A stretch of DNA of 64,000 nt, taken from positions 248,001-312,000 of the forward strand of contig JASTWF010000088.1 of assembly GCA_030390025.1 (NCBI GenBank). The letters run 5' to 3'. Positions within the stretch are counted from its first letter, which is position 1; each line of letters starts with the position of its first letter. This document shows, piece after piece, positions 1 through 64,000 of this stretch. Below the pieces are notes generated by a model that was not told the DNA's origin, made no database searches, and was given only the letters and a program-made list of their open reading frames with translations. The position numbers and the translations under genes are program-made. This DNA is from Squalus acanthias. Taxonomy: Eukaryota.

Positions 1-1387
1 CCACAATCCTTTGCGCGGTGGCCTCAAGGGGGTCCACCGGCAGGAAGGTCCCGCCCACGGTGAGCCCCTTCTCGATGGCCAGGGACACCGCCCGCTCCGA
101 CCCCAGGAAGAACACAGCCTTGCCGTACATTTTAGAGGCGGCGACGATGGCTGAAGGGCCGACAACCCCAGCCATGGCTTTAACGCACGCCTCTATAGTC
201 ATGTTGGGGTGAGTGTAGCTCTTGACCCCATTCTTCCTCGTAAGGAGGGTAAAAGGTGACGGGGTAACAGGAGGACTCGTGGCTGCGGCCGTGGCCGCGG
301 CTGCCACGCTCGCATACGTCCTCGCTGCCCCCGCCACCGACGAAGATGTACTCGCCATAATGGAGGGTTCTTTAAGGGCTACACTCACCCCAAGTCACAG
401 GCCTGAAGGTGTTAATGGCCTTGGTTTTTTTTTCCCTGAGCAGAGGGAGCTCTTAAATTGAAGGCACACCTCTCCCTTTAGTTGATTGAATTGGGAGAGG
501 GGCCTTCTCCCCTCTGCTCAATGGGTATTTAATAAAAAGTTAATTGAGGTGCCTCTTAGAGAGAGAGGCAGAGAGAGACAGAGACAAAGAGAGAGAGAGA
601 GGAGGTAGGAAGGAGGGAAGCCGCAAGGGCAGGGTCGCCACTCAGGATGGTGGGTGGGTGGGTGGGTGGGTGTTGGCAGGGGGTGCACTCTCCGATGTAA
701 TAAAAGTCTTTGGTGGTGGTGGTCTTCTGGTGGGGGGAGAAGATGTCTTCACCTGGGACAGCTGGAGATGCCCAGGCTCAGTCCTGCACCAGGTCTTAAC
801 GATGCCCAATTGGATTAAATTAATTGGGGAACTTCACCTAGGCAGCTCCAGCTGTCCCAGGTCAGGCAATGGGAAAGGGGTGTTTAATATGGTGTGTGCG
901 GCCTAGCTTTTACAAAAGCCACACACACACACACACACCCCTTGGATGTTCCGGCCTTCTTCTTTTCTTCTTTCCTCCCCCCACCTACAAAACAAAGTCT
1001 CTGGGAGAGTGCCCCAGAATCACACCCACCTGTAGCTGTTGTTCTTTCCTTCCTCCTCCTTCCAAACAGTTGATGGTTGTTTTGTTGTTTTCTCCCCTCT
1101 CTCCCTCTCCTAAAATGGAGGCCAATTGAGGAGGCAGTGTGGAAAGGCCTCTCCTCTGGTGTTAATGGCCTTGGCCTTTCTTTTCTTATCTTTCTCCTCT
1201 CCTGTCCTCTCTCTCCAGGCACCTCAGTAGTGGTTGTTGGTTGTTGGTGGTGGTCTGCTGCCTGGTCTCCTTCTCCTTCTCCTCTTCCTGCTCACAGAGA
1301 CCACCACTCTGCTGCTGCTGCTCCTTCGTCAGCAGCTCCGAAAGCTTGTGATTTCAAATAAAGCTGTTGGACTATAACCTGGTGTTG
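1..1387 (-). mobile_element. Tx1-clade non-LTR retrotransposon, copy A (5' UTR and start of ORF1; runs off window)
   Basis: 1-540 is near-identical to 7180-7720 (period about 7179 bp). Joined head-to-tail to copy B at AACCTGGTGTTG (1376-1387). Confidence 0.9.
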
Positions 1388-1454
1388 ATCTTTTTGGTTT
1401 GTCAAATCAAAATTTACTGTAAATCAATTAAAACTTTAAATGAAACTTAACAAA

Positions 1455-4400
1455 TCAAATCAAAATTTGGAAGTCCGGGGTGACGATGCACTCCAGTCCC
1501 CGCGGCGCCCACCGGTCACGGAAAAACTCAAGCGTGCCGGCGGACACCGCGTGCTCCATCTCCAGGGCCACCCGGGCGCGAACATGGCCGCGGAAGAGAG
1601 GCAGGCAATCGGGCCGAACGACCCCCTCGACCGCCCGCTGCCTGGACCAATTAATGGCTTTCTTGGCCAGGCCCAGGAGCAGTCCTACGAGGAGGTCCTC
1701 CGACCTACCCGCTCCCCTCCGCACCGGGTGACCGTAGATCAGGAGCGTGGGGCTGAAGTGCAACCAGAAATTGAGGAGCAGCCCCTTCAAATAATGAAAG
1801 AGGGGCTGCAACCTCTCACATTCAACATAAATGTGATAAACGGACTCCTCCAGGCCGCAAAAATGGCAAGCAGCCTGGGAGTCCGTAAACCTACTTAAAA
1901 TCCTATTGCACGGGACTGCTCCGTGCAACACCCTCCAGGCCAAGTCCCCAATAGAACAAGGGAAGACTCCCGCGTAGAGAGCCTTCCAATGGGGACCTTC
2001 GCCTCCGCCGGACGGCAGGATGGTACGCCAAGGCGTGTCCGGACGGCAGACGAAGATGGCAAAGTGGAGAGTGTGCAGGAGCAGCCCGTACAGGAAACGC
2101 CTCCGTGCGGATTGAAAGGGCACGGAGGGCATTTCTCCGAGAAGGCTCAAGTGGTGAGGCGGCGGCTCCCGAGGGAGGATTCGGGGCCGGGCGCCGATAA
2201 GGAATTCCGTCCGAACGGGGGTCAGTTCGGACGGGATCGCCCCACGTGCTTGAGCCTCCTCGACACACCTAGTGGAGACGGGGCCCAGTGCCACTTTTAG
2301 CGACTCGATGGCTTTGACCGCGAGCCGGACGTTGACCCAAGACATGCGCCTCGCCAACTCCTCCGGCGCCATCCAGCCCGCTCCTCCGCCATCGAGCAGG
2401 TCCCCGACTCTGGTCACCTTACCGGGCACAGCCCTGCCCTCCGCCAGCCAGCCGAACCCGCGGTCGTGGTGGTGCGGATTCCTGAACAGCGGCTCCCGAA
2501 GGACGGCCGCCGCTCCTGACGGGGGAGAACTGCGCTCGGAGGCGACGCTGTTCCAAACCCATAGCAGTTCCTGGTAGAAGACAGGCAGCTCCCGCAGGCT
2601 GGCACGCGTGCCACCCACTCTCACAAACAGGAGCTGCGTGTCGTAATTGAGGCCGTGCAGCTGGCGGAAGAAATACGTCGCCAGCGCACGCCACCTAGGA
2701 GGATTCTCCACGTACAGGTATCTCTGCAGCGTCTGAAGACGGAAAGTCGCCGCCTGGGTGCGAAGGCACACCAGCGCCTGACCGCCCTCCCTAAGCGGGA
2801 GACTCAAAACCGCGGCAGAGACCCAGTGCTTCCTTTTGTCCCAGAAGAAGTCGACGAGCTTCTTCTGCATCTTGGCGACAAACGCAGGGGGAGGGATCAA
2901 AGTGATCAACCGGTACCACAACATGGCGGCCACCAGCTGGTTTATGACCAGCGCTCGACCCCTGTAGGACAACACTCGGAGCAGTCCTGTCCAGCGCCCT
3001 AGGCGAGCGGTGACTTTGGCCTCCAGCTCTTGCCAGTTCGCCGGCCAGGCGTCCTCGGCCGGGCTGAGGTAGACTCCCAGGTAGAGGAGGTGCGTGGTGC
3101 TCCAGGCGAAAGGCCCGAACTCCTCCGGCAGGGAGTCCACCCGCCATGGGCCCACCAGGAGTCCAGAACATTTCTCCCAGTTGATCTTGGCGGAGGATGC
3201 GTCCGAGTAAATCTGCTGGCATTCTCGCATCCTCCGCAAGTCGACGGGATCCGTGACCGCGAGGAGCACGTCATCGGCGTAAGCCGAGAGGACCACCTCC
3301 ACGCCCGGCCCTTGCAGAGCCAGTCCCGTCAACCTCTTCCGCAAGAGGCGCAGGAAAGGCTCCACGCAAACGGCGTATAACTGACCGGACATGGGGCATC
3401 CCTGACGCACCCCCCTCCCGAAGCGAAGGGGCGCCGTCAAAGACCCGTTAACTTTAATGAGACACTCCGCGGCGGCGTACAGAAGTCGGATCCGGGCGAC
3501 GAAATGCGTCCCGAACCCGAATGCGCGCAGAGTCCCGAAAAGATACTCGTGATCCACCCTGTCGAACGCCTTCTCCTGATCCAGGGAAAGGAAGGCGACC
3601 GACAGACCAGCCCTCTGGGAATGGTGGACCAGGTCCCGGACCAGATGGATGTTATCGTGGATACTCCGGCCCGGGACCGTGTAGGACTGGTCGGGGTGGA
3701 TCATGCGGGCCAGCACGGTGCCAAGGCGAGCAGACATAGCCCTGGCGAAAATTTTGTAGTCCGTGCTGAGGAGGGAGACCGGGCGCCAGTTCTTAAGTAG
3801 GCGGAGATCGCCCTTCTTGGGCAGCAGGACGATGACCGCCCTGCGCCAAGAGAGGGGCATCTCCCCGGTCGCCAGACTTTCCCCCAGGACCCGCGCGTAG
3901 TCGTCCCCCAAGACGTCCCAGAACGCCCTGTGGAACTCCACGGTCAGCCCGTCCAGCCCCGGGGACTTGCCCCTCGAGAGCTGGCGCAGGGCGCCGGTCA
4001 GCTCCGCCAGGCTTAGCGGAGCTTCTAAATTCTCGGCGCCCTCCGGGCCGACCTTCGGCAGGTCCTCCCACAAAACTCTGCGCGCATCCTCGCTGGACGG
4101 ATCCGAAGAGAACAGAGCCCCGTAATAGGCCCGGGCCTCCGCGCTGATGCCCTCCGGATCCGAGACCAGAGATCCGTCGTCGGCCAGCAGCCCCAAGAGC
4201 TGCTTACGGACCCCCCGTCTTTTTTCCAGCGAGTAGAAGAAGGGGGAGCCGCGGTCCAGGTCCCGCAGGAACTGGATCCGCGACCTCACGTACGCGCCTC
4301 GGGACCCGACCAGCTGCAGGTCCTTCAGCGCGCCCTTCTTCTCTTCGTACACCTTCCGCAGGGCCGGGTCCTCGACGACTTGACCGAGACGGGACTCCAG

Positions 4401-5354
4401 GTCGAGCACTTCTTTCTCCAATCGCCCGACCCGGGCCTCCCGCCTCTTGGTCGACCCCTTCGCGTACTCCTGACAGAAGACGCGGACGTGAGCCTTGCCC
4501 ACGTCCCACCATAGCCTCAAGGAGGGGAAGCCTCCCCGCTTCCTTCTCCAGTCGGCCCAGAACCGGCGAAACGAATCCCGGAACCGCGCGTCCTCCAGCA
4601 GCAGGTTGTTAAAATGCCAGTACGCGGACCCCCCCCGCGCGCGCAGCGGAGCGAGCTCCGCCCACACCAGGTGGTGGTCCGTGCACGGCACCGGCCGCAT
4701 GGAAGCCGCCGGAACGCAGGAGACGTACGCCCGGGAAATGTAAAGGCGGTCGATTCTGGACCTTCCTCCTCCAGACCTCACGCTCGTGAAGGCGCTGGAG
4801 TCGGGATGGAGATTTCGCCAGACGTCCACCAAGTCGAAGGACCCGACCAGGTCCCGCAACTTCTCCATCGCCGCCGGGCTTCGCGGGGGACCCGACCGGT
4901 CCCGCGCCTCGAGGGTACAATTGAAATCCCCCCCGAGGATGACGCACTCGCCCACGTCGATGGAGCCCAGAAGAGCGGACACTTCTCCGAAGAAGCGCAC
5001 TTGCTGCGCACCGGTCCGGGGGGCGTACACGTTCACTAAATGGAGCGGCACGCCTCCCAGGCGAACAGTGACCTGGAGCAAGCGGCCCGGCACGTGCTCC
5101 TTGACCCTCAAGATCTCCGGCTGAAAATGCGGGGCCAGCAAGACAGCCACCCCGCAGGAATTGTTGGAGAGGTGACTCATGCTGACCCCTCCTTGCCACT
5201 CCAGGAGCCACGTGGCCTCGTCTCCCGGAACGGTGTGGGTTTCTTGCAGGAAGCACACCGCATATTTCCCGTCCCGAAGGACCGAGAAGTTATTGAATCT
5301 ACGGCGCGCCTCCCTGCTGCCGTTGATGTTGAGGCTGGCTATGGTTATCTTCAT
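1455..5354 (-). CDS. Tx1 ORF2: AP endonuclease + reverse transcriptase + C-terminal zinc finger (intact, about 1300 aa)
   Basis: Motifs SLNING, LQETH, GGDFN, RIDRLYI and TDHH (APE); KSPGLDG, WRPVSLL, DQEKAFD, GVRQGCPMS and AYADD (RT); CHFC...H..VEC at the C-terminus. Confidence 0.93.
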   Translation of the reverse strand: MKITIASLNINGSREARRRFNNFSVLRDGKYAVCFLQETHTVPGDEATWLLEWQGGVSMSHLSNNSCGVAVLLAPHFQPEILRVKEHVPGRLLQVTVRLGGVPLHLVNVYAPRTGAQQVRFFGEVSALLGSIDVGECVILGGDFNCTLEARDRSGPPRSPAAMEKLRDLVGSFDLVDVWRNLHPDSSAFTSVRSGGGRSRIDRLYISRAYVSCVPAASMRPVPCTDHHLVWAELAPLRARGGSAYWHFNNLLLEDARFRDSFRRFWADWRRKRGGFPSLRLWWDVGKAHVRVFCQEYAKGSTKRREARVGRLEKEVLDLESRLGQVVEDPALRKVYEEKKGALKDLQLVGSRGAYVRSRIQFLRDLDRGSPFFYSLEKRRGVRKQLLGLLADDGSLVSDPEGISAEARAYYGALFSSDPSSEDARRVLWEDLPKVGPEGAENLEAPLSLAELTGALRQLSRGKSPGLDGLTVEFHRAFWDVLGDDYARVLGESLATGEMPLSWRRAVIVLLPKKGDLRLLKNWRPVSLLSTDYKIFARAMSARLGTVLARMIHPDQSYTVPGRSIHDNIHLVRDLVHHSQRAGLSVAFLSLDQEKAFDRVDHEYLFGTLRAFGFGTHFVARIRLLYAAAECLIKVNGSLTAPLRFGRGVRQGCPMSGQLYAVCVEPFLRLLRKRLTGLALQGPGVEVVLSAYADDVLLAVTDPVDLRRMRECQQIYSDASSAKINWEKCSGLLVGPWRVDSLPEEFGPFAWSTTHLLYLGVYLSPAEDAWPANWQELEAKVTARLGRWTGLLRVLSYRGRALVINQLVAAMLWYRLITLIPPPAFVAKMQKKLVDFFWDKRKHWVSAAVLSLPLREGGQALVCLRTQAATFRLQTLQRYLYVENPPRWRALATYFFRQLHGLNYDTQLLFVRVGGTRASLRELPVFYQELLWVWNSVASERSSPPSGAAAVLREPLFRNPHHHDRGFGWLAEGRAVPGKVTRVGDLLDGGGAGWMAPEELARRMSWVNVRLAVKAIESLKVALGPVSTRCVEEAQARGAIPSELTPVRTEFLIGARPRILPREPPPHHLSLLGEMPSVPFQSARRRFLYGLLLHTLHFAIFVCRPDTPWRTILPSGGGEGPHWKALYAGVFPCSIGDLAWRVLHGAVPCNRILSRFTDSQAACHFCGLEESVYHIYVECERLQPLFHYLKGLLLNFWLHFSPTLLIYGHPVRRGAGRSEDLLVGLLLGLAKKAINWSRQRAVEGVVRPDCLPLFRGHVRARVALEMEHAVSAGTLEFFRDRWAPRGLECIVTPDFQILI

Positions 5355-5379
5355 CTCAGAAGCATAGTGCAACCTCTAC

Positions 5380-7537
5380 CTAACGGAGGGGAGGGAGGGC
5401 GGTCACTGACGACCGCCACTCCCTCAGCAGCCCAGTGTGGAACGTCTTGAGCCGACGCAGCTCGAGCCGGCCAACGTCCTTGTCCGCGCCCATGATTTTA
5501 ACGGCGGCGCGGACGGACACGACGAGCAGCGTCAGCTCCGACCATTTGTCGAGGGCCAGCCGGATCTTCTTGTGACGACCCTGGCTCATGGCCATAAAAT
5601 CCCGGAGTTCCCCTACGGGGATGAGGGGAGAGTCGGTGAAGGGCACGAGGGCGTCCATCGCCTCGCTGCCGATGGACTCCAAATCGTCCTCGTTGCCCCC
5701 CACCGAGTCCCCGTCCTCCTCCGGGAGGTCGTCACCGGCGGCCAACCCATCCGTCACACAGGGTGCAGCGAACGGCTCGGCCGCACCGGCCGGCCCCGCC
5801 TCCGTCACGATCCCACCCCCAGGATCGGTGGCAGAGGAGTCCACCCTGGGCTCCTTCAGGGGCGCCGGGCCGGGAGGCGGCGGCGGCAGTTCGGGGCCCC
5901 CCCCCCGCCTCAGGCGCCGGGGCGACCGGAGAAACCGGGGAGAAAATAATCCCAAATTCCTCCAGCACGTCCGGCGCCAACAACAGAGACGGAGTCAGGG
6001 GGCTTTCCGTCTCCCCGCCACCAACCTCCGACCCAGCAGGCTGGGGATTGCTACACTCCTCCACCAGGTCGAGCAGTCCCTGGGAGATGTCTGGGTTATA
6101 AAAGGCGGGCTCGGCTTCAGCCTCTTTGGCCTCGCCCGCCCCAGTCCCCAGGACGCCCGACCCGGCGAGGAGCAACGGTTCCGGTACTACATTTCCCTCC
6201 GCGGGTTGTTCCGCGCCCCCCTCCACGGGCAGGGTCTCTTCCCCATCCCCGGGAGGCACAGGTCGGACAGACTCGTCTGTCTCACCCTCCCGAGGGACAG
6301 ACGACCCCTGCCGATCGCGCGCGACGATGACGGTGGTGGGGTGGGGCGCAGCACCCGCGGCGGGCGACTGCCCCCCTTTTGCGGAGGGACCTTCCTCCTC
6401 GCAGTCCTCCTGCTGGGGGCGGAGCTTTCTTTTTAACAAGTTGGGGCCCGGAGAGGGGGAGGCCTCCATGTCTGCTGGGGCCTCCCTCTCTGCCCCCTTC
6501 CGACGACTGGGTTTCTTGGGCCCCTCGGGCCCGAGCCCGGCCGCAGGTCTTAATTCAGCTGCCTCAGCAGTTGCGGTCACGGTCGCGGGCCCGGGCACGA
6601 GGACCCCCCCAGTCTCATGCGTCCCGACCAACTCCGCGATATACTCGGGCGTGAGTTCTGTCAATTCCGATGTTTCCTCCGCGAGGGGATCCGCCCTTAG
6701 GTGTTTAGTTTTCCTACGCGCCTTCCTTCCCCCCGGACGCTCTCCCTCCTCCCCGCCGGAGGCCGTGGTGGTGTTGGCCTCCGATTTCGACCGCGCATCC
6801 GTCGCCGTCGACGCGCGGACAGTATCAGGGGGAGGGGGGGCGGCGGCGCCAACCCCGGCCGCGCCAGGTGTCGTGGCGGCCTTGGAGGCGGGGCAGTTTT
6901 TGCGGACGTGCCCCACCTCCTTACAGGCGTAGCACCGCGCGCCGTCCGAGGTCCAGAAGACGCGGTGGGCGGTCCCCCCGTGGAGCACCGTGAACGCGCC
7001 GTCCGCGTCCTCCTCCCGCGCCAGCCGGACGAAAAGCTGGCGCCGGAAGGAGAAGACGTGCCGAAGGCTGGCTTCCCGGAAGCCGAGCGGGATGGGTGTG
7101 ATCCCCGACCTCACCTCCCCCAGTTGACGTAGGTGGGGGAGGAGGAGCTCACCCGGAACAAAGGGCGGGACGTTGGAAACCACAATCCTTTGCGCGGTGG
7201 CCTCAAGGGGGTCCACCGGCAGGAAGGTCCCGCCCACGGTGAGCCCCTTCTCGATGGCCAGGGACACCGCCCGCTCCGACCCCAGGAAGAACACAGCCTT
7301 GCCGTACATTTTAGAGGCGGCGACGATGGCTGAAGGGCCGACAACCCCAGCCATGGCTTTTACACACGCCTCTATAGTCATGTTGGGGTGAGTGTAGCTC
7401 TTGACCCCATTCTTCCTCGTAAGGAGGGTAAAAGGTGACGGGGTAACAGGAGGACTCGTGGCTGCGGCCGTGGCCGCGGCTGCCACGCTTGCGTACGTCC
7501 TCGCTGCCCCCGCCACCGGCGAAGATGTGGTCGCCAT
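5380..7537 (-). CDS. Tx1 ORF1 (gag-like, CCHC zinc knuckle), with an apparent frameshift in the C10 run at 5897-5906
   Basis: CYACKEVGHVRKNC knuckle and VSNVPPF motif. The probable C-terminal helical segment (LRDFMAMSQGRHKK...) lies in the adjacent frame. Confidence 0.8.
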
Positions 7538-8574
7538 AATGGAGGGTTCTTTAAGGGCTACACTCACCCCAAGTCACAGGCCTGAAGGTGTTAATGGCCT
7601 CGGTTTTTTTTTCCCTGAGCAGAGGGAGCTCTTAAATTGAAGGCACACCTCTCCCTTTAGTTGATTGAATTGGGAGAGGGGCCTTCTCCCCTCTGCTCAA
7701 TGGGTATTTAATAAAATGTTAATTGAGGTGCCTCTTAGAGAGAGAGGCAGAGAGAGACAGAGACAAAGAGAGAGAGAGAGGGGGCAGGAAGGAGGGAAGC
7801 CGCAAGGGCAGGGCCGCCACCCAGGATGGTGGGCGGGTGGGTGCCGGCAGGGGGGTGCACTCTCCGATGTAATAAAAGTCTTTGGTTGTGGTCTTCTGGT
7901 GGGGGGAGAAGACGTCTCCACCTGGGACAGCCGGAGATGCCCAGGCCCAGTCCCGCACCAGGTCCCAACGATGCCCAATAAGATAAAACCAACCGGGGAC
8001 TTCACCTAGGCAGCTCCAGCCGTCCCAGGTCAGGCAATGGGAAAGGGGTGTCCAACATGGTGTGTGCGGCCCAGCCTCCACAGAAGCCACACACACTCAC
8101 ACACACACCCCCTAGATGTTCCGGCCCTCCTCCCCTCCTCCCTCCTCCCCCCACCCACAAAACAAAGTCTCTGGGAGAGTGCACCAGAACCACACCCACC
8201 CGCAGCTGCCGCTCCCCCCCTCCTCCCTCCCTCCAAACAGATGATGGACGTCCCGTTGCCCTCTCCCCTCTCTCCCCCTCCCAAAATGGAGGCCAATCGA
8301 GGAGGCAGTGTGGAAAGGCCTCTCCTCCGGTGCCCGACGGCCCCGGCCTTCCCCTCTCATCTTTCTTTCTCCTCTCCTGTCCTCTCTCTCCAGGCACCCC
8401 AGTTGTTGTGGTCGTTGGTTGTTGGTGGCGGCCCGCCGCCCGGTCTCCCCCTCCCCCTCCTCCTCCCGCCCACAGAGACCACCACTCCGCCGCTGCTGCT
8501 TCAGCTGCTCCTTCGTCAGCAGCTCCGAAAGCCCGCGACCTCAAACAAAGCTGTTGGACAACAACCTGGCGTTG

Positions 8575-8627
8575 TGCGACTTCTCATTTTTGTCCACCCC
8601 AGTCCCACACCGGCATCTCCGCATCAT
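8575..8627 (+). mobile_element. Remnant of Penelope-like terminal sequence (downstream half of the Tx1 target)
   Basis: TGCGACTTCTCATTTTTGTCCA...CCGGCATCTCC.CATCAT matches the reverse complement of about 63358-63402. Confidence 0.85.
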
Positions 8628-11587
8628 AAATCAAACATGGCCACAGTAAATACTAATTCTAATAGGTCTAAGAGCGTTAAAAAAACAAGCCTGAAAGCTT
8701 TGTGTCTTAATGCAAGGAGCATTCCGAACAAGGTGGATGAATTAGCTGCGCAAATAGAGGTAAACAAATATGATTTGATTGGGATTACCGAAACATGGCT
8801 CCAGGGTGGCCAAGGCTAGGAACTCAACATCCAGGGGTACTCAATATTCAGGAAAGATAGGCAAAAAGGAAAGGGAGGTGGGGTAGCATTGCTGGTTAAA
8901 GAGGGGATTAACACAATTGAAAGGAAGGATATTAGCTCTGATGATGTGGAATCTGTATGGGTTGAACTGAGAAATAACAAGGGGCAGAAAACATTAGTGG
9001 GAGTGATATATGGACCTCCAAACAGTAATGCGGAGGTTGGGGATGGCATTAAAAGGGAAATTAGAGAAGCGTGCAATAAGGGCACAGCAGTCATCATGGG
9101 TGACTTTAATCTACATATAGATTGGGCTAACCAAATTAGTAACAATACTATGGAGGAGGAATTCCTGGAGTGTTTACGGGATGGTTTCCTGGACCAATAT
9201 GTCGAGGAACCAACCAGAGATCAGGCCATCTTAGACTGAGTATTATGCAATGAGAAAGGATTAATTAGCAATATTGTTGTGCGAGGCCCCTTGGGTCGGA
9301 GCGATCATAATATGATAGAATTCTTCATTAGGATGGAGGGTGAAGTAGTTGACTCAGAGACTGGGGTCCTGAATTTAAATAAAGGAAACTATGATGGTAT
9401 GAGGTGCGAGTTGGGTAGGATTGATTGGGGAATGTCACTCAAAGGGTTGACGGTGGATAGGCAATGGCAAACATTCAAAGACCGCATAGACGAACTACAG
9501 AATTTGTTCATCCCAGTTTGGCATAAGAATAAAACAAAAAGGTTGACTCAACCGTGGCTAACAAGGGAAATTAGGGATAGCATAAGATCCAAGGAGAGGG
9601 CATATAAATTGGCCAGAAAAAGCAGTAACCCTGAGGATTGGGAGCAGTTTAAGATTCAACAAAGGAGGACAAAGGGATTAATTAAGAAGGGGAAAATAGA
9701 ATACGAGAGTAAGCTTGCAGGGAACATAAAAACTGACTGTAAAAGCTTTTATAGATATGTGAAGAGAAAAAGATTAGTGAAATCAAGCATAGGTCCCTTG
9801 CAGTCAGAATCAGGGGAACTTATAATGGGGAACAAAGAAATGTCAGTCCAATTAAATACATATTTTGGTTCTGTCTTCACAAAGGAGGACACAAATAACC
9901 TCCCAGAGATGTTGGGGAACATAGGGTCTGATGAAAGGGAGGAACTGAAAGAAATCAGTATTTGTAGGGAAATGGTGTTAGGGAAATTGAAGGGATTGAA
10001 GGCCGATAAATCCCCAGGGCCTGATAATCTACATCCTAGGGTACTTAAGGAAGTGGCCCTAGAAATAGTAGATGCATTGCTGATCATCTTCCAACATTCG
10101 ATGGAATCTGGAACAGTACCTATGGATTGGAGGGTAGCTAATGTTACCCCACTATTCAAAAAGGGTGGTAGAGAGAAAACGGGGAATTACAGACCTGACA
10201 TCGGTAGTGGGGAAAATGCTAGAATCCATTATAAAAGATGTAATAGCTGAGCACTTGGAAAACAGTGACGGGATCGGACAAAGTCAACATGGATTTACAA
10301 AAGGTAAATCATGCTTGATTAATCTACTGGAATATTTTGAGGATGTAACTGGTAAAATAGATAAGGGAGAACCAGTGGATGTGGTGTATTTGGACTTCCA
10401 AAAGGCTTTTGATAAGGTCCCGCATAAGAGATTAGTGTGTAAAGTTAAGGCACATGGGATTGGGGGCAAGGTATTGACTTGGATAGAGAACTGGTTGGCA
10501 GACAGAAAGCAAAGAGTTGGAATAAACGGGTCTTTTTCCGAGTGGCAGGCAGTGACTAGTGGGGTACCGCAGGGATCGGTCCTTGGACCCCAGCTATTCA
10601 CAATATATATTAATGATCTAGACAAGGGAACTAGATGTAATATCGCCAAGTTTGCAGACGACACAAAACTGGGTGGGCGCGTGTGCTGCGAGGAGGATGC
10701 CGAGAAACTCCAGGATGATTTGGACAGGTTGGGTGATTGGGCAGAAGCGTGGCAGATGCAATACAACGTGGATAAATGCGAAGTTATCCACTTTGGTGTC
10801 AAAAACAGAAAGGCAGATTATTATCTGAATGGCAATAGATTGGGAGACGGGGAAGTGCAACGAGACCTGGGTGTCCTTGTGCACCAGTCGTTGAAGGTAA
10901 GTATGCAGGTGCAGCAGGCGGTTAAGAAGGCAAATGGTATGTTGGCCTTCATAGCGCGAGGGTTTGAGTACAGGAACAAGGATGTTTTGCTGCAGTTGTA
11001 CAGGGCCTTGGCGAGACCACACCTTGAGTACTGTGTGCAGTTTTGGTCGCCTTATTTGAGGAAGGATGTTCTTGCCATGGAAGGAGTTCACCGAAGATTC
11101 ACAAGGCTGATACTTGGGATGGCAGGAATGACGTATGAAGAAAGATTGGGTCGATTGGGCTTATACTCGCTGGAGTTTAGAAGAATGAGAGGGGATCTCA
11201 TTGAAACTTATAAAATTCTGACAGGACAGGACAAACTAGATGCAGGAAGGATGTTCCCGATGCTCGGGGAGTCCAGAACCAGGGGTCACAGTCTAAGGAT
11301 AAGGGGTGAGCCATTTAGCACAGAAATGAGGAGGAATTTCTTCACCCAGAGAGTGGTGAACCTGTGGAATTCTCTGCCACAGAAGGCAGTAGAGGCCAAT
11401 TCATTAAATTGATTCAAGAAGGAGTTGGATATATTTCTTAAGGGTAAAGGGATCAAGGGAAACGTATGGGGAGAAAGCAGGGACAGGGTACTAAATTTGG
11501 ATGATCAGCCATGATCGCATTAAATGGCGGAGCAGGCTAGCGGGGCCGAATGACGTACTCCTGTTCCTATCTTCTATGATTCTATGA
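8628..11587 (+). mobile_element. CR1-clade LINE (ORF2 APE-RT, disrupted by stops and a frameshift)
   Basis: Motifs LNARSI, ITETW, GDFN, KSPGPD, LDFQKAFD, GVPQGSVLGP and KFADD; short repeated tail TTCTATGA. Confidence 0.9.
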
Positions 11588-12782: not shown

Positions 12783-14435
12783 GACCGCAGTTAGACCGGC
12801 TCCGGGGGAGGGAGAGAGACCGGAGTTAGACCGGCTCCAGGGGAGGGAGAGAGACCGGAGTTAGACCGGCTCCGGGGGAGGGAGGGAGCCCGGAGTTAGA
12901 CCGGCTCCGGGGGAGGGAGAGAGACCGGAGTTAGACCGGCTCCGAGGGAGGGAGAGACCGGAGTTAGACCGGCTCCGGGGGAGGGAGAGACCGGAGTTAG
13001 ACCGGCTCCGGGGGAGGGAGAGAGCCCGGAGTTAGACCGGCTCCGGGGGAGGGAGAGAGACCGGAGTTAGACCGGCTCCGGGGGAGGGAGAGAGAGACCG
13101 GAGTTAGACCGGCTCCGAGGGAGGGAGAGACCGGAGTTAGACCGGCTCCGGGGGAGGGAGAGACCGGAGTTAGACCGGCTCCGGGGGAGGGAGAGAGACC
13201 GGAGTTAGACCGGCTCCGCGGGAGGGAGAGACCGGAGTTAGACCGGCTCCGGGGGAGGGAGAGAGACCGGAGTTAGACCGGCTCCGGGGGAGGGAGAGAG
13301 ACCGGAGTTAGACCGGCTCCGGGGGAGGGAGAGAGACCGGAGTTAGACCGGCTCCGCGGGAGGGAGAGACCGGAGTTAGACCGGCTCCGGGGGAGGGAGA
13401 GAGACCGGAGTTAGACCGGCTCCGAGGGAGGGAGAGACCGGAGTTAGACCGGCTCCGGGGGAGGGAGGGAGAGACCGGAGTTAGACCGGCTCCGGGGGAG
13501 GGAGGGAGACCGACCGGAGTTAGACCGGCTCCGGGGGAGGGAGGGAGACCGACCGGAGTTAGACCGGCTCCGGGGGAGGGAGGGAGACCGACCGGAGTTA
13601 GACCGGCTCCGGGGGAGGGAGGGAGAGAGACCGGAGTTAGACCGGCTCCGGGGGAGGGCGAGGGAGAGAGAGAGACCGGAGTTAGACCGGCTCCGGGGGA
13701 GGGCGAGGGAGAGAGAGAGACCGGAGTTAGACCGGCTCCGGGGGAGGGCGAGGGAGAGAGACCGGAGTTAGACCGGCTCCGGGGGAGGGAGGGAGAGAGA
13801 GAGACCGGAGTTAGACCGGCTCCGGGGGAGGGAGGGAGAGACCGGAGTTAGACCGGCTCCGGGGGGGGAGAGACAGAGACCGGAGTTAGACCGGCTCCGG
13901 GGGAGGGAGGGAGAGAGACCGGAGTTAGACCGGCTCCGGGGGAGGGCGAGGGAGAGAGAGAGACCGGAGTTAGACCGGCTCCGGGGGAGGGAGGGAGAGA
14001 CCGGAGTTAGACCGGCTCCGGGGGAGGGAGGGAGAGACCGGAGTTAGACCGGCTCCGAGGGAGAGAGAGAGAGACCGGAGTTAGACCGGCTCCGAGGGAG
14101 GGAGAGACCGGAGTTAGACCGGCTCCGGGGGAGGGAGGGCGAGACCGGAGTTAGACCGGCTCCGGGGGAGGGAGGGCGAGACCGGAGTTAGACCGGCTCC
14201 GGGGGAGGGAGGGCGAGACCGGAGTTAGACCGGCTCCGGGGGAGGGAGGGCGAGACCGGAGTTAGACCGGCTCCGGGGGAGGGAGGGCGAGACCGGAGTT
14301 AGACCGGCTCCGGGGGAGGGAGGGCGAGACCGGAGTTAGACCGGCTCCGGGGGAGGGAGGGCGAGACCGGAGTTAGACCGGCTCCGGGGGAGGGAGGGCG
14401 AGACCGGAGTTAGACCGGCTCCGGGGGCGGGAGGG
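12783..14435. repeat. G-rich minisatellite, about 33-40 bp unit (GACCGGAGTTAGACCGGCTCCGGGGGAGGGAGA), roughly 45-50 copies
   Basis: Directly visible; starts just after the exon 1 donor. Confidence 0.97.
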
Positions 14436-14989
14436 AGGCCGTTGTCTATACGGTCCACTAAGCTCACCATTTTCTATTACCATAGATGTCAATTACAAAG
14501 GCGTCACTTGTAATGTGCGCTGGATATTTCGGGCAGATTCAGCTGATCAATCAGCAGTTCACATCTCGTTAAAGTGCGATTACCTTGAATACTCAATCCC
14601 CGCTACATAGTGTTAGTTTGTACTATCAACACTTTTTACAAGTATGTCTTAAAGTTTGAAGCTGTGTACGCTCTAGTTTACTTTGTTCACTGGCTTGGTA
14701 GCATTATGAATGAGTTTGATGTTTGAAGTTTTGTGATTTAAGTTTTTTTGTTTCGTAAACGAGGTCTTCAACACATCCTACGTATAGATGTGACTTTCTT
14801 ACTTTTTTAAATAGAATGTTAAAGTTGCACAGGATCTGAACTGATTTGACTAATTTCCAGGCCTTGGAGCCAGTCTGATTCCTGCAGTTTGAAGCTGATC
14901 TTAGGCAAGAACTCGAGGGATAGTAATGTGTAGTTCGGTGATGTGAAGGCATTGAGTTGGTTTCTGTATTTCCTCATGCAGCCAACTAG

Positions 14990-18300: not shown

Positions 18301-18904
18301 TCTTTCACCATTCAGTGAAACTGCCAGCGATGTCATTTTAACTCTCTTCCTACTTCACCCTCTAAGATCACCTCTTGCATCTTCTCCTTTCCAGGCTGAA
18401 AATCCCAAGTCTTTCCTCAGAACTCAACCCCCTGACAGTGGATCAGCCTCATGGTTCCTCTTTGCAATGCCCCCAGCACATGACTGTCTCTTGTCTGTGC
18501 CAGAACTTGGGATTAAATCACAATTGTTCCAGGCCCAGCCTAGATCTTCTATAGGTTAGCAGAAACAGGTTTAAACATATTCGCCCAGATCTTGCTGGAG
18601 TGGTGCATCTGAGTGCCCCATTAGACTTTTTCCTGCATTCTTCAGCTCAATTTTTTTGTGCTGCAAATTGTTGGAAGTGCGAGCTAATATCTGGGTGGTG
18701 AGAGCATGGTGCATGGGCTCTCTCTGAATAGCGGGACTAACAGTCTATCTCCTTAACCGATTGACATTTAAGGAGTGAAAGAGATGGGGTGAATTAGTCC
18801 CATTCCAGAGACTTGAGCACAAAAATCTAGGCTGACACTCCAGTATAGTGCTGAGGGAGTGCTGCACTGTCGAGGTGCCATCTTTCAGATGAGGGCTTTG
18901 TGTG

Positions 18905-20987
18905 TTGTGGGTTTGGCGGGGGGCTCAGTGTCATGGGTTTGGCGCGGGGGGGGTGGGCTCAGTGTCATGGGTTTGGCGCGAGGGGGGGTGCGCTCTGTCA
19001 TGGGTTTGGCGCGGGGTGGGGGTGGCTCAGTGTCCTGTGTGCGGGGGGGGGGCTCAGTGTCCTGTGTGTGTGTGGGGGGGTTCAGTGTCCTGTGTGTGTG
19101 GGGGGGTTCAGTGTCCTGTGTGTGTGGGGGGGCTCAGTGTCCTGTGTGTGTGGGGGGGCTCAGTGTCCTGTGTGTGTGGGGGGGCTCAGTGTCCTGTGTG
19201 TGTGGGGGGGCTCAGTGTCCTGTGTGTGTGGGGGGGTGGGGCTCAGTGTCCTGTGTGTGTGGGGGGGGGGCTCAGTGTCCTGTGTGTGGGGGGGGGGGGG
19301 CTCAGTGTCCTGTGTGTGTGGGGGGGGGGGGCTCAGTGTCCTGTGTGTGTGGGGGGGGGGGCTCAGTGTCCTGTGTGTGTGGGGGGGGGGGGCTCAGTGT
19401 CCTGTGTGTGTGGGGGGGGGGGGCTCAGTGTCCTGTGTGTGTGTGGGGGGGGGGGGGGGCTCAGTGTCCTGTGTGTGTGTGGGGGGGGGGGGGGGGGGCT
19501 CAGTGTCCTGTGTGTGTGGGGGGGGGGGCTCAGTGTCCTGTGTGTGTGGGGGGGGGGGGGGCTCAGTGTCCTGTGTGTGGTGGGGGGGGGGGCTCAGTGT
19601 CCTGTGTGTGGGGGGGGCGGGGGGGCTCAGTGTCCTGTGTGTGGGGGGGGGAGGGGCTCAGTGTCCTGTGGTGGGGGGGGGGCTCAGTGTCCTGTGAGTG
19701 GGGGGGGGCCTCAGTGTCCTGTGTGTGTGGGGGGGTGTGGCTCAGTGTCCTGTGTGTGTGTGGGGGGGGGCTCAGTGTCCTGTGTGTGTGTGGGGGGGGG
19801 GGCTCAGTGTCCTGTGTGTGTGTGTGGGGGGGGCTCAGTGTCCTGTGTGGGGGGGGGGTGGGGGGCTCGGTGTCCTGTGCGTGTGTGTGGGGGGGGGTGG
19901 GGGGGCTCGGTGTCCTGTGTGTGTGTGTGGGGGGGGGGGGGGGGGGGCTCAGTGTCCTGTGTGTGTGGGGGGGGGGGCTCAGTGTCCTGTGTGTGGGGGG
20001 GGGGGGGGGGCTCAGTGTCCTGTGTGGGGGGGGGGGTGNNNNNNNNNNNNNNNNNNNNNNNNNNNNNNNNNNNNNNNNNNNNNNNNNNNNNNNNNNNNNN
20101 NNNNNNNNNNNNNNNNNNNNNNNNNNNNNNNNNNNNNNNNNNNNNNNNNNNNNNNNNNNNNNNNNNNNNNNTGTGGGGGGGGGGCTCAGTGTCCTGTGTG
20201 TGGGGGGGGGGGGGGCTCAGTGTCCTGTGTGTGTGGGGGGGGGGGGCTCAGTGTCCTGTGTGTGGGGGGGGGAGGGGCTCAGTGTCCTGTGGTGGGGGGG
20301 GGGGCTCAGTGTCCTGTGAGTGGGGGGGGGCCTCAGTGTCCTGTGTGTGTGGGGGGGTGTGGCTCAGTGTCCTGTGTGTGTGGGGGGGGGGGGGGGCTCA
20401 GTGTCCTGTGTGTGTGTGGGGGGGGGGGGGGGCTCAGTGTCCTGTGTGTGTGTGTGGGGGGGGCTCAGTGTCCTGTGTGTGGGGGGGGGGGGGGCTCAGT
20501 GTCCTGTGTGGGGGGGGGGGTGGGGGGCTCAGTGTCCTGTGTGGGGGGGGGGGGTGGGGGGCTCAGTGTCCTGTGTGGGGGGGGGGGTGGGGGGCTCGGT
20601 GTCGTGTGTGGGGGGGGGGGGGGTGGGGGGCTCGGTGTCCTGTGCGTGTGTGTGGGGGGGGGTGGGGGGGCTCAGTGTCCTGTGTGTGTGGGGGGGGGGG
20701 GGGGCTCAGTGTCCTGTGTGTGTGTGGGGGGGGGGGGGGGCTCAGTGTCCTGTGTGTGTGTGTGGGGGGGGCTCAGTGTCCTGTGTGTGGGGGGGGGGGG
20801 GGGCTCAGTGTCCTGTGTGGGGGGGGGGGTGGGGGGCTCAGTGTCCTGTGTGGGGGGGGGGGTGGGGGGCTCAGTGTCCTGTGTGGGGGGGGGGGTGGGG
20901 GGCTCGGTGTCGTGTGTGGGGGGGGGGGGGGTGGGGGGCTCGGTGTCCTGTGCGTGTGTGTGGGGGGGGGGTGGGGGGGCTCGGTGT

Positions 20988-21027
<40 letters not shown>

Positions 21028-21700
21028 GGGGGGGGGGGGCTCTGTGTCCTGTGTGTGTGGGGGGGGGCTCAGTGTCCTGTGTGTGTGGGTGGGGTGGGGG
21101 GCTCGGTGTCCTGTGTGTGGGGGGGGGGGCTNNNNNNNNNNNNNNNNNNNNNNNNNNNNNNNNNNNNNNNNNNNNNNNNNNNNNNNNNNNNNNNNNNNNN
21201 NNNNNNNNNNNNNNNNNNNNNNNNNNNNNNNNNNNNNNNNNNNNNNNNNNNNNNNNNNNNNNGTGTGGGGGGGGGAGGGGCTCAGTGTCCTGTGGTGGGG
21301 GGGGGGGCTCAGTGTCCTGTGAGTGGGGGGGGGCCTCAGTGTCCTGTGTGTGTGGGGGGGTGTGGCTCAGTGTCCTGTGTGTGGGGGGGGGGGGCTCGGT
21401 GTCCTGTGTGTGGGGGGGGGGGGGCTCGGTGTCCTGTGAGTGGGGGGGGGCCTCAGTGTCCTGTGTGTGTGGGGTGGGGGGCTCGGTGTCCTGTGTGTGG
21501 GGGGGGGGGGCNNNNNNNNNNNNNNNNNNNNNNNNNNNNNNNNNNNNNNNNNNNNNNNNNNNNNNNNNNNNNNNNNNNNNNNNNNNNNNNNNNNNNNNNN
21601 NNNNNNNNNNNNNNNNNNNNNNNNNNNNNNNNNNNNNNNNNNNNNNNNNNNNNNNNNNNNNNTGTGAGGGGGGGGGCTCAGTGTCCTGTGTGTGTGCTTG
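18905..21700. repeat. G/T-rich minisatellite (CTCAGTGTCCTGTGTGTG(G)n) with three assembly gaps
   Basis: Directly visible; N-runs at about 20039-20171, 21132-21262 and 21512-21662. Confidence 0.97.
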
Positions 21701-24816: not shown

Positions 24817-24899
24817 ATATTTCAGCTGAGGCCTAACCAGTTATTTAAAGGATTAGCATAACTTTCTTGCTTTTGTACTCTGCCTATAACCTGGTGTTG

Positions 24900-27499
24900 C
24901 TCTTTTTGGTTGACAAATCAAAATTTACTGTAAATCAATTAAAACTTTAAATGAAACTTAATAAATCAAATCAAAATTTGGAAGTCCGGGGTGACGATGC
25001 ACTCCAGCCCCCGCGGCGCCCACCGGTCGCGGAAAAACTCAAGCGTGCCGGCGGACACCGCGTGCTCCATCTCCAGGGCCACCCGGGCGCGAACATGGCC
25101 GCGGAAGAGAGGCAGGCAATCGGGCCGAACGACCCCCTCGACCGCCCGCTGCCTGGACCAATTAATGGCTTTCTTGGCCAGGCCCAGGAGCAGTCCCACG
25201 AGGAGGTCCTCCGACCTACCCGCTCCCCTCCGCACCGGGTGACCGTAGATCAGGAGCGTGGGGCTGAAGTGCAACCAGAAATTGAGGAGCAGCCCCTTCA
25301 AATAATGAAAGAGGGGCTGCAACCTCTCACACTCAATATAAATGTGATAGACGGACTCCTCCAGGCCGCAGAAATGGCAAGCAGCCTGGGAGTCCGTAAA
25401 CCTACTTAAAATCCTATTGCACGGGACTGCTCCGTGCAACACCCTCCAGGCCAAGTCCCCAATAGAACAAGGGAAGACTCTCGCGTAGAGAGCCTTCCAA
25501 TGGGGACCTTCGCCTCCGCCGGACGGCAGGATGGTACGCCAAGGCGTGTCCGGACGGCAGACGAAGATGGCAAAGTGGAGAGTGTGCAGGAGCAGCCCGT
25601 ACAGGAAACGCCTCCGTGCGGATTGAAAGGGCACGGAGGGCATTTCTCCGAGAAGGCTCAAGTGGTGAGGCGGCGGCTCCCGAGGGAGGATTCGGGGCCG
25701 GGCGCCGATAAGGAATTCCGTCCGAACGGGGGTCAGTTCGGACGGGATCGCCCCACGTGCTTGAGCCTCCTCGACACACCTGGTGGAGACGGGGCCCAGT
25801 GCCACTTTTAGCGACTCGATGGCTTTGACCGCGAGCCGGACGTTGACCCAGGACATGCGCCTCGCCAACTCCTCCGGCGCCATCCAGCCCGCTCCTCCGC
25901 CATCGAGCAGGTCCCCGACTCTGGTCACCTTACCGGGCACAGCCCTGCCCTCCGCCAGCCAGCCGAACCCGCGGTCGTGGAGTTGCGGATTCCTGAACAG
26001 CGGCTCCCGAAGGACGGCCGCCGCTCCTGACGGGGGAGAACTGCGCTCGGAGGCGACGCTGTTCCAAACCCATAGCAGTTCCTGGTAGAAGACAGGCAGC
26101 TCCCGCAGGCTGGCACGCGTGCCACCCACTCTCACAAACAGGAGCTGCGTGTCGTAATTGAGGCCGTGCAGCTGGCGGAAGAAATACGTCGCCAGCGCAC
26201 GCCACCTAGGAGGATTCTCCACGTACAGGTATCTCTGCAGCGTCTGAAGACGGAAAGTCGCCGCCTGGGTGCGAAGGCACACCAGCGCCTGACCGCCCCT
26301 CCCTAAGCGGGAGACTCAAAACCGCGGCAGAGACCCAGTGCTTCCTTTTGTCCCAGAAGAAGTCGACGAGCTTCTTCTGCATCTTGGCGACAAACGCAGG
26401 GGGAGGGATCAAAGTGACCAACCGGTACCACAACATGGCGGCCACCAGCTGGTTTATGACCAGCGCTCGACCCCTGTAGGACAACACTCGGAGCAGTCCT
26501 GTCCAGCGCCCTAGGCGAGCGGTGACTTTGGCCTCCAGCTCTTGCCAGTTCGCCGGCCAGGCGTCCTCGGCCGGGCTGAGGTAGACTCCCAGGTAGAGGA
26601 GGTGCGTGGTGCTCCAGGCGAAAGGCCCGAACTCCTCCGGCAGGGAGTCCACCTGCCATGGGCCCACCAGGAGTCCAGAACATTTCTCCCAGTTGATCTT
26701 GGCGGAGGATGCGTCCGAGTAAATCTGCTGGCATTCTCGCATCCTCCGCAAGTCAACGGGATCCGTGACCGCGAGGAGCACGTCATCGGCGTAAGCCGAG
26801 AGGACCACCTCCACACCCGGCCCTTGCAGAGCCAGTCCCGTCAACCTCTTCCGCAAGAGGCGCAGGAAAGGCTCCACGCAAACGGCGTATAACTGACCGG
26901 ACATGGGGCATCCCTGACGCACCCCCCTCCTGAAGCGAAGGGGCGCCGTCAAAGACCCGTTAACTTTAATGAGACACTCCGCGGCGGCGTACAGAAGTCG
27001 GATCCGGGCGACAAAATGCGTCCCGAACCCGAATGCGCGCAGAGTCCCGAAAAGATACTCGTGATCCACCCTGTCGAACGCCTTCTCCTGATCCAGGGAA
27101 AGGAAGGCGACCGACAGACCAGCCCTCTGGGAATGGTGGACCAGGTCCCGGACCAGATGGATGTTATCGTGGATACTCCGGCCCGGGACCGTGTAGGACT
27201 GGTCGGGGTGGATCATGCGGGCCAGCACGGTGCCAAGGCGAGCAGACATAGCCCTGGCGAAAATTTTGTAGTCCGTGCTGAGGAGGGAGACCGGGCGCCA
27301 GTTCTTAAGTAGGCGGAGATCGCCCTTCTTGGGCAGCAGGACGATGACCGCCCTGCGCCAAGAGAGGGGCATCTCCCCGGTCGCCAGACTTTCCCCCAGG
27401 ACCCGCGCGTAGTCGTCCCCCAAGACGTCCCAGAACGCCCTGTGGAACTCCACGGTCAGCCCGTCCAGCCCCGGGGACTTGCCCCTCGAGAGCTGGCGC
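24900..27499 (-). mobile_element. Tx1 copy C, 5'-truncated (RT to 3' end), in intron 3 of MHC IIB
   Basis: Nearly identical to 1388-3988, with one extra C near 26296 causing a frameshift. TSD AACCTGGTGTTG at 24888-24899 and 27500-27511. Confidence 0.93.
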
Positions 27500-27522
27500 A
27501 ACCTGGTGTTGTGCGACTTCTC

Positions 27523-61448: not shown

Positions 61449-61504
61449 TGTCCGCTGCGTAGCTCTATGGTCACACACTGAGCCCAATGTCCTACCTACT
61501 GATG

Positions 61505-61914: not shown

Positions 61915-63355
61915 ATACATAGGATTACATAGGATATACGACACAGAAACAGGCCATTCGGCCCAACCAGTCAATACCGGTGTTTATGCTCCACTCGAGC
62001 CTCCTCCCGCCTTTCCTCATCTAAGTCTATCAGCATAACCCTCTATTCCGTTTTCCCTCATATGCTTGTCTAGCCTCCCTTTAAATGCATCTATACTATT
62101 CGCTTCAACCACTCCCTGTTGTAGCGAGTTCCACATTCTCACCACTCTTTGGGTAAAGAAGTTTCTTCTGAATTCCCTATTGCATTTCTTGGTGACAGTC
62201 TTATATTGATGGCCTCTAGTTATGCTCTTCCCTACAAGTGGAAACATTTTCTCTGTATCCACTCTATCAAAATTTTTCATAATTTTAAAGACCTTTATGA
62301 GGTGACCCCTCAGCCTTCTTTTTTCAAAGGAAAAGAGACCCAGCCTGTTCATCCTTTCCTGTTATGTGTACCCTCGCATTTCTGGTATCATCCTTGTAAA
62401 TCTTCTCTACACCCTCTCCAGTACCTCTATATCCTTTTTATAATATGGCGACCCAAACTGTACGCAGTACTCTAAGTGTGGTCTAACCAAGTTCGATACA
62501 GGCTTAGCATAACTTCCCTACTTTTCAATTCTAACCCTCTAGAAATAAACCCTAGTGCTTAGTTTGCTATTTTTATGGCCTGGCTAACCTGTGTCGCAAC
62601 TTTCAGTGATTTGTGTATTTGTACTCAGAGATCCATTTGTTCCTCTACCCCACCTAGACTCGCACCCTCCAAGTGATAAGTGACCTCCCTATTCTTCCTA
62701 CCAAAATGTAATACCTCACATTTATCTGTGTTGAACTTCATTTGCCAATTATATGCCCATTTTGCAAGTTTATTAATGTCCTCCTGTAATTTGTTGCAGC
62801 CCTCCTCAGTATTGACTATCCCCCCCAATTTGGTGTCATCTGCAAATTTAGAAATTGTGTTTTTGATTCCTAAGTCTAAATCATTAATATAAATTGTGAT
62901 CAACAGTGGTCCCAGCACTGATCCTTATGGAACACCACCACCCACCTTCTGCCATTGTGAATAACTACCCTTTACTCCTACTCTCTGCTTTCTGTCCTGA
63001 AGCCAGCCAGCAATCCATTCTGCTACTTGTTCCCTGACTCCACATTCTCTGACCTTCTTCATCAGTCTATTATGGGGTACCTTATCGAAGGCCTTTCAAA
63101 AATCCAGATAAATTACATTGATTGCATTACCATTGTCTACTCTCTCTGTTACCTCTTCAAAAAATTCAATAAGGTTGGTCAAGCAAGACTTTCCCTCTTG
63201 AAATCCATGCTGACTAGTCATTATTATATATTTGGTTTCTAGATGATCTTCTATTTTCTCCTTTATTGGGGTTTCTATTATTTTTTCTGCCATCGATGTT
63301 AAGCTGACTGGTCTATAATTCTCTGGACATGTTCTACCCCCTACTTAAATATAGG
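61915..63355 (-). mobile_element. CR1 LINE 3' portion
   Basis: SQHGF..GKSCLTNL, KFADDTKLGG, RRNFFTQRVV..WNSL. Confidence 0.85.
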
Positions 63356-63356
63356 T

Positions 63357-64000
63357 CATGATGTGGAGATGCCGGCGTTGGACAAAAATGAGAAGTCGCA
63401 CAACACCAGGTTATAGTCCAACAGATTTATTTAATTTTACAAGCTTTCGGAGCAGTTCGCTCCTTCGTCAGGTAAGTTAGCAGTGAGAGAATCTCCCAGA
63501 ATTCACAATTTAAACACAGACAAAATCTATTCACATCTTTCCCTACATCAAAGAGCACAGCCAAGACAATGAGATGTGTCCCAGGGGGTCCAACGTGTCA
63601 AACCACCTGCTGGCTGCATATCCTGTCAATTTGTGTAGGTTCTTGTGTTAGTCTTTTTAAAAAAAAACACCTGGGAAGACCGGCCATGATGTCAAGTCAC
63701 GTTCTGTATCGTGACATGAACCCGATATCGCGATTGAGGCCATCCTCATAGACTTCCTCAGAAGACGAACACGGGACACAACCAACAGAGTACCCTACGT
63801 CGTCCAGTACTTCCCCAGAGTGGAAAAACTACGCCATGTTCTTCGCAGCCTTCAACATGTCATCGATGACGACGAACACCTTGCTAAGGCCATCCCCACG
63901 CCTCAACTACTCGCCTTCAAGCAGCCGCCTAACCTCAAAAGTACCATCGTTCGCAGCAGATTACCCATCTTTCAGGAGAACAGCAACCAAGACACCACAC
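63357..64000. mobile_element. Penelope-like element with inverted structure (minus-strand 3' end 63357-63748; plus-strand ORF fragment from 63749)
   Basis: Minus strand: EDGLNRDIGFMSRYRT* ORF end. Plus strand: RVPYVVQYFP...AFKQPPNLKSTIVRSRL. Confidence 0.85.
63437..63475 (-). ncRNA. Minimal type I hammerhead ribozyme of the Penelope terminus
   Basis: UUAC-CUGACGA-A-GGAGC GAACU GCUCC-GAAA-GC-UU-GUAA. Stem I UUAC/GUAA, stem II GGAGC/GCUCC, palindromic minimal stem III. Confidence 0.75.

Follow-up and report, generated by a model that had tools for sequence, protein, structure and literature searches.

Two Tx1-clade LINE copies of Squalus acanthias with a hypermutated 5' UTR that probably derives from ADAR-edited RNA

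The window, a stretch of 64,000 nucleotides from the Squalus acanthias assembly, starts inside an array in which a 7.2-kb element is repeated on the minus strand. The array alignment contains at least three head-to-tail units. Its 5'-terminal unit, copy B (1388..8574, minus strand), was delimited by self-alignment, array alignment and ORFs as a full-length Tx1-clade non-LTR retrotransposon, and judging by its sequence it is a young LINE with intact ORFs. The unedited 5' end of the neighboring unit, copy A (1..1387, minus strand), served as the reference.

ORF1 (5732..7573, minus strand) comprises 613 amino acids from stop to stop, with the first in-frame ATG near 7537, and contains a CCHC zinc knuckle, a motif typical of ORF1 in the Tx1 clade; the Pfam match to zf-CCHC scores 20.9 bits, just above the cut-off of 20.8. 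ORF2 (1455..5375, minus strand), of 1306 amino acids, is intact and contains the APE endonuclease, the reverse transcriptase and a C-terminal zinc domain identified by Pfam. It is 50% identical to ORF2 of Xenopus Tx1 over 1299 aligned positions (99% of the query), the match of human L1 ORF2 is much weaker, and the highest identities are shown by partial homologs from cartilaginous fishes. In longer alignments the body of copy B differs from other copies by about 0.4–1.2% without an excess of T-to-C changes, and the body spectrum likewise reveals no such excess in ORF2. The family is young, as indicated by this small divergence and by one 24-nt motif of the unedited UTR with 974 exact matches in the genome.

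Insertion of the family is site-specific. The 3' junctions come after one 16-nt site in 88 of 92 cases, and the 141 full-length 5' junctions abut the other half-site (73), the next unit (66) or something else (2). The target looks like the terminal repeat of a Penelope element. An empty Penelope-like site, which the initial annotation used as the outgroup and in which T is retained, is located at 63358..63453 (minus strand), and half of a site flanks copy B at 8575..8627 (plus strand). A GIY-YIG-like motif was seen by eye in seven ORFs, two of which are the same ORF, among the 26 target loci scanned, including the ORF beside 63358–63453; none of four such ORFs near the target matched a Pfam family, and Rfam gave no credible match and no hammerhead in 1–10000 and 63200–63700. 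Preference for other repeats as targets is described as typical of the Tx1 clade in the available portion of PMC4494074. The element resembles Xenopus Tx1 and Tx1-Mar, as presented there, in its ORF2, in a fixed site within another repeat and in tandem insertions, but differs from them in using a Penelope-like terminal repeat as its target and in having a copy of that target at the 5' tip.

Two types of 5' end, with ~53 nt or ~16 nt of target-like sequence, are found in the family (L150, L163, L166, L171, L174, L184), and the older copies L126–L130 have still other 5' ends. In type I copies the target-like tip corresponds to 8522..8574 (minus strand) of copy B. The 5'-truncated and unedited copy C (24884..27511, minus strand) has an 11-nt target-site duplication (TSD), and truncated arrays show, by eye, duplications of about 14–18 nt. 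The fragment of target repeat that received copy C is ~27 bp long, thus a very short target suffices; the fragment itself interrupts another repeat, which we take to be CR1/L2-like. Tandem short 5'-truncated copies with a shared truncation point and mixed 3'-end haplotypes occur at L085 (C3256) and L110 (C8:141.70–141.71 Mb). Opposite copies in a tail-to-tail arrangement, ~13 kb apart, were found at C2:164556115/164569125 and C2:164770505/164783541 (motif positions), and perhaps reflect one insertion into each arm of an inverted target repeat.

The 5' UTR of copy B carries a hypermutated tract (7785..8570, minus strand), which covers roughly the initial 790 nt of the element's RNA and in which A has changed to G on the RNA strand only. 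The dozens of T-to-C changes on the plus strand reported in the initial annotation are readily reproduced: between A (601–1387) and B (7781–8574), 85 of 227 T read C, C-to-T changes are absent and 14 substitutions are of other types. Both sequence motifs quoted there are present, and the adjoining segment is indeed nearly identical, with nine substitutions in 7180–7780, one of them T-to-C among 125 T. The state of B is derived, as had been argued, since against 62 other distinct copies of the same genome its private changes in the tract are 68 T-to-C and a single G-to-C, the latter within an indel-rich stretch; the 63-copy alignment shows no private change of B in 7180–7780. When the count is limited to family-invariant T (present in ≥90% of the other copies), C is read at 78 of 202 positions in 7785–8570 and at 0 of 116 in 7180–7780. 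Overall, ~40% (39%) of A in the first ~790 nt of the RNA of B read G, and the part of ORF1 compared with the family (7180–7573) contains no edits.

The tract is bounded on the inner side, where the first edit is at 7785, by a GA microsatellite (7737..7780, plus strand), and the last edit is at 8570. That the changes end at the insertion boundary is confirmed by the flank (8575–8627), which keeps all 15 of its T where 5.5 edits are expected (P about 10^-3.4). The last edit was correctly positioned in the initial annotation; the “TSD-equivalent” in which it was placed there is the end of the 53-nt target-like tip of type I copies. A one-way T-to-C skew is displayed by one of the 21 repeat pairs of the window of at least 150 bp, namely A/B, in a scoring that left out three tandem-repeat regions.

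Other hyper-edited copies had been proposed as something to look for, and one more was found. Copy D (C1560:288145–289000; L112, L114) is a second full-length hyper-edited copy, with an intact ORF2 and an ORF1 of 572 amino acids from stop to stop. Its private UTR changes are 59 T-to-C and one G-to-A. In the coordinates of copy A, editing begins at A606 in B; in D it begins at A635, apart from a lone change at A437, the only one among 116 sites in A1–600. Two parts of the D tract are clean, a gap of ~125 bp at A830–955 (0/27, P about 10^-8) and the final ~52 nt, which contain 17 T (P about 10^-4), and gene conversion or a template switch is a possible source of both.

All five patterns built on the edited form match B and four match D, with no third copy; the patterns demand exact matches, so that two edited copies represent a lower bound. 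Among 143 distinct UTR copies two are edited and the rest show at most 10 T-to-C changes relative to A; this sample is non-random, being assembled from similarity searches and 60 stretches around the first 100 listed matches of the unedited motif, and 62 of its 141 unedited copies aligned across the GA repeat. The C state is thus not that of a common subfamily, as two edited copies stand against the 974 unedited motif matches. An edited-form pattern for the 3' UTR has no match in the genome, 250 body alignments (427,781 aligned bases, redundant) contain at most six T-to-C changes per 300 bp, these in diverged copies, and no daughters of B or D were found. Low-level editing as a source of family variation was considered and rejected. 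Its initial signal was circular, and rare T-to-C changes in the 141 unedited copies occur at 3/40 sites edited in both B and D, 4/35 edited in one, 6/79 edited in neither and 10/107 outside the tract.

The sequence context of the edits agrees well with ADAR on the 5' side and partially on the 3' side. Human ADAR1 acting on a ~800-bp duplex prefers 5' neighbors in the order U>A>C>G and 3' neighbors in the order G>C~A>U (PMC3113232, available portion). In B, the edited fraction by 5' neighbor on the RNA strand is 0.72 for U (13/18), 0.59 for A (29/49), 0.35 for C (23/65) and 0.16 for G (11/68; chi-square p=4.7e-7), so that the anticipated depletion after a 5' G is seen, G being the lowest of the four. 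The enrichment before a 3' G, also anticipated, is weak: the fractions are 32/74 for G, 24/53 for A, 9/23 for U and 11/50 for C (p=0.058), with G similar to A and C lowest. In D, the 5' neighbors give A 23/35, C 19/48, G 16/59 and U 6/11, with G again lowest and A above U, and on the 3' side G is similar to A and C is lowest (p=0.03). Sites with a 5' G are edited at 16–27% in B and D, above what the in-vitro coefficients suggest, and the low editing before a 3' C is contrary to the human models.

Sites were also ranked by the published eight-term coefficients for human ADAR1 and ADAR2, as given in Supplementary Data 1, the portion of PMC3113232 used. For B (76 edited of 203 sites) the AUC is 0.76 with ADAR1 and 0.72 with ADAR2, and falls to 0.45 and 0.43 when the 5' and 3' neighbors are swapped; for D it is 0.69 and 0.67, with a permutation p≤0.0005 for the models of B and D. 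The 39% of edited A in B lies under the ceiling of 50–60% for long duplexes. Hyper-edited RNAs, in the parts of PMC4365171 and PMC3113232 at hand, share with the tract the dense A-to-G change on one strand, the depletion of 5' G, the order U>A>C>G and a level below 60% of A; what differs here is that the changes are in assembled genomic DNA and that the enrichment of 3' G is weak.

A base-calling, polishing or assembly artefact had been raised as a real alternative. B and D are known from the assembly only, on the unplaced contigs C3751 and C1560, yet an artefact is scarcely credible as the source of the tract, and an assembly artefact is unlikely for both copies. The T-to-A changes that had caused concern, at 7980, 7985, 8248 and 8560, are common to 25, 11, 27 and 7 other copies, correspondingly, and the only A-to-C change, at 8606, falls in the flank; the changes of B other than T-to-C are ordinary polymorphisms. 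An artefact should also not produce a sole substitution type that is A-to-G on the sense strand of the element whichever contig strand carries the copy, nor an ADAR context, a halt at the insertion junction of B, or the same inner boundary at two loci with partly different sites, and it should not leave the other 141 distinct UTR copies unchanged. The known Sanger trace error concerns G-to-A changes (PMC2873906, available portion). Five public DNA runs from two samples contained 0.05–0.06 of the sampled words, in line with the 69 of 821 31-mers that are common to B and unedited copies; among public-run contigs (90%, three runs; 98%, four runs) none spans the edited stretches and none is listed across 8626/8627, which is uninformative either way.

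The one-way sense-strand spectrum, the ADAR context, the stop at the junction and the second copy with a matching tract all support the reading of the initial annotation that edited RNA was reverse-transcribed. As far as sequence can tell, it is very probable that ADAR hyper-edited a double-stranded 5' stretch of the element RNA and that a new heritable insertion arose in which the inosines had been copied as G. ADAR would have acted on a duplex restricted to the 5' UTR, the reverse transcriptase of the element would read inosine as G, and the edited cDNA would be inserted by target-primed reverse transcription in the germ line. The identity of the enzyme as ADAR, the RNA stage of the change and germline insertion by target-primed reverse transcription are each likely on this evidence, and most likely edited RNA retrotransposed at least twice.

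The two copies could alternatively descend from a single edited ancestral source, followed by further editing and recombination. B and D can be compared at 180 sites: 44 of these carry edits in the two copies alike, 24 are edited in B alone, 20 in D alone, and 92 are clean in both, and on the 153 sites outside the gap of D the 44 common edits compare with 28.8 expected from the 5' context. This excess fits site preferences beyond the nearest neighbor but could also hint at common ancestry, for which the mosaic nature of the family speaks as well, B and D having common best-matching copies at distance 0 in A1–300. Such an origin is nevertheless very unlikely, since patterns built on the common edits find B and D only and reveal no copy that carries just those edits. 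The UTRs of B and D have 12 non-T/C differences, and for nine of them the two alleles both occur in unedited copies, so that the interspersed haplotype differences segregate in the unedited family. The two copies are of different 5'-end type and are both the 5'-terminal units of their own arrays, and their bodies are 51 substitutions apart, in the typical range of 33–78 for other copies. The mosaicism of the family is too strong for a template switch at the GA repeat to be recognized.

Deamination of the DNA in place would proceed through an antisense R-loop, in which the sense DNA is held in an RNA:DNA hybrid and ADAR acts on dA. ADAR is active on RNA:DNA hybrids, the polarity would be the same, the inner boundary possibly also, and the edit at 8570 in the TSD-sized tip would be accounted for. 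We regard this as highly improbable, because an R-loop has no reason to end at the junction (0/15 T in the flank), neighboring array units of the same sequence are unedited, and fixation at 39% requires escape from repair, to which hypoxanthine in DNA is subject. Even less credence is given to error-prone reverse transcription, for example under a dTTP shortage, by which dC would be incorporated opposite A toward the end of cDNA synthesis. The tract is copied last, and the polarity is the expected one, but the ADAR context is left without a reason, as are the abrupt start of the changes, which is at one and the same position in two insertions, and the clean gap and last ~52 nt of D.

If the RNA origin is accepted, the edits serve as a natural tracer of the 5' junction. 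Those at 8562 and 8570 are 13 and 5 nt from the junction of B, and at 8560 the tip carries a family allele that the 3' flank of B does not have. These three positions suggest that the target-like tip of B was likely copied from RNA, and with it the greater part of the terminal 11 nt, which have the size of a TSD. The RNA would have begun with the target-like tip, and its cDNA version would have replaced the target DNA at the 5' junction. That the cDNA version prevails is expected if the end of the cDNA anneals to the target overhang, and the 5' junctions of R2 resemble this outcome.

The double-stranded partner of the edited RNA could in principle be the RNA itself. The whole unedited 787-nt UTR is predicted to fold with a z of -9.6 relative to 20 shuffles, and the GA repeat lies close to the end of its structured domain. 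Edited A are nevertheless depleted at predicted pairs (18/70 paired, 58/130 unpaired; neighbor-adjusted p=0.005). Those 200-nt windows whose start lies within the first 400 nt give a z of -1.4 to +0.6 and yet are edited at ~40%, and unedited windows in the ORFs reach a z of -6.8. The depletion at predicted pairs and the structured but clean ORF windows indicate, within the limits of the folding model, that the RNA's own fold is not what accounts for the edits.

A fold-back duplex, formed by long-range structure of the UTR or by an inverted copy beside the source locus, shares the same ADAR core and is a rival for the partner only; we consider it rather unlikely. In its favor are the strong overall fold with its boundary near the GA repeat, the hot sites common to B and D beyond the 5' context, and the existence of inverted UTR fragments (L138, L198). 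It conflicts with the preference of the edits for A predicted to be unpaired, with the heavy editing of the most 5' windows, which lack local structure, and with the absence of editing from structured ORF windows. An intrinsic fold should make edited copies common, and two were observed against 974 with no low-level signal; an inverted copy specific to one locus is not expected to give an identical boundary on two haplotypes. As for solo UTRs as the partner, L198, L215 and L138 are one-off rearrangements, and L191 and L062 begin at N runs and carry no information on this point. The first three contain rearranged 5' UTR fragments with inverted neighbors.

Retrotransposition of edited RNA can also be combined with a separate antisense transcript, which would start near the GA repeat and run out through the 5' end, the edited tract being the sense/antisense overlap. 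That the boundary is common to two haplotypes suggests a feature intrinsic to the element, and such a transcript is the simplest candidate. It would be comparable to the product of the antisense promoter of mammalian L1, and we put the chances of this partner at about even. The 5' UTR antisense promoter of L1 may yield double-stranded RNA (PMC8208052, available portion), and the predicted geometry, a sense/antisense overlap within the 5' UTR, is alike, although the Tx1 antisense transcript is hypothetical. It speaks against the ADAR reading that, according to the accessible part of PMC5224506, ADAR1 restricts L1 in HeLa cells without detectable editing of its RNA. A search for antisense-edited copies revealed none among the 30 of 39 pattern matches that were checked, the pattern having caught a family SNP. 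This partner predicts an antisense transcript that begins close to 7780, and editing of the RNA within the 5' UTR only.

Proviruses of avian retroviruses (RAV-1, avian leukosis virus) also record ADAR-type A-to-G hypermutation. The likeness lies in edited RNA being reverse-transcribed into integrated DNA over a limited region, but those are exogenous LTR viruses in infected cells, and here an endogenous non-LTR element is edited within its 5' UTR. APOBEC G-to-A fossils in genomic LTR elements are well described (PMC4866542, PMC2873906, in the portions available) and are likewise clustered, one-way, strand-biased traces of a host deaminase in single copies; in that case G-to-A arises on the cDNA of LTR elements, and here A-to-G would arise on RNA. 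The screen in PMC4866542, as far as its available text goes, chose G-to-A and not A-to-G changes. No description of ADAR-hyper-edited LINE copies in inherited DNA was found in open-access titles and abstracts, subscription papers being outside this scope, and the available parts of PMC3197674 and PMC5974252 contain nothing on edited retrocopies. What is new is a reproducible edited 5' UTR domain in two intact full-length insertions.

If this origin is correct, rare copies record in DNA both a double-stranded RNA domain and a 5' junction built from RNA. The UTR would have been rewritten and upstream AUGs added, with the ORFs spared, so that the new copy may be silenced. The UTR of B contains upstream AUGs at RNA nt 215 (8358–8360, 82 codons) and nt 517 (8056–8058, 18 codons), both of which are lacking in A and D. 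From the sequence, the AUG at nt 517 arises from the edit at 8056, and that at nt 215, located in an indel-rich stretch, probably from the edit at 8358. These upstream AUGs could lower the translation of ORF1. It is tentatively proposed, with some doubt, that the antisense transcript of the GA repeat forms a ~790-nt duplex that is edited by ADAR in the germ line, that the edited RNA still retrotransposes, and that this amounts to a heritable ADAR-based defence against LINEs. The event is rare, with two edited copies against 974 unedited motif matches, and its evolutionary weight in the Tx1 family looks small.

Three further open frames overlap the tract, 7982–8629 and 8010–8819 on the plus strand and 8002–8583 on the minus strand, all without a Pfam match; the two on the plus strand are probably by-products of the T-to-C changes, which remove stop codons. 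Elsewhere, the window contains tandem arrays at 58959–61453 (81-bp period, ~91% identity), 12783–14441 and 18893–21510, and a direct duplicate of 400 bp with 98.75% identity at 35379–35778 and 43425–43824.
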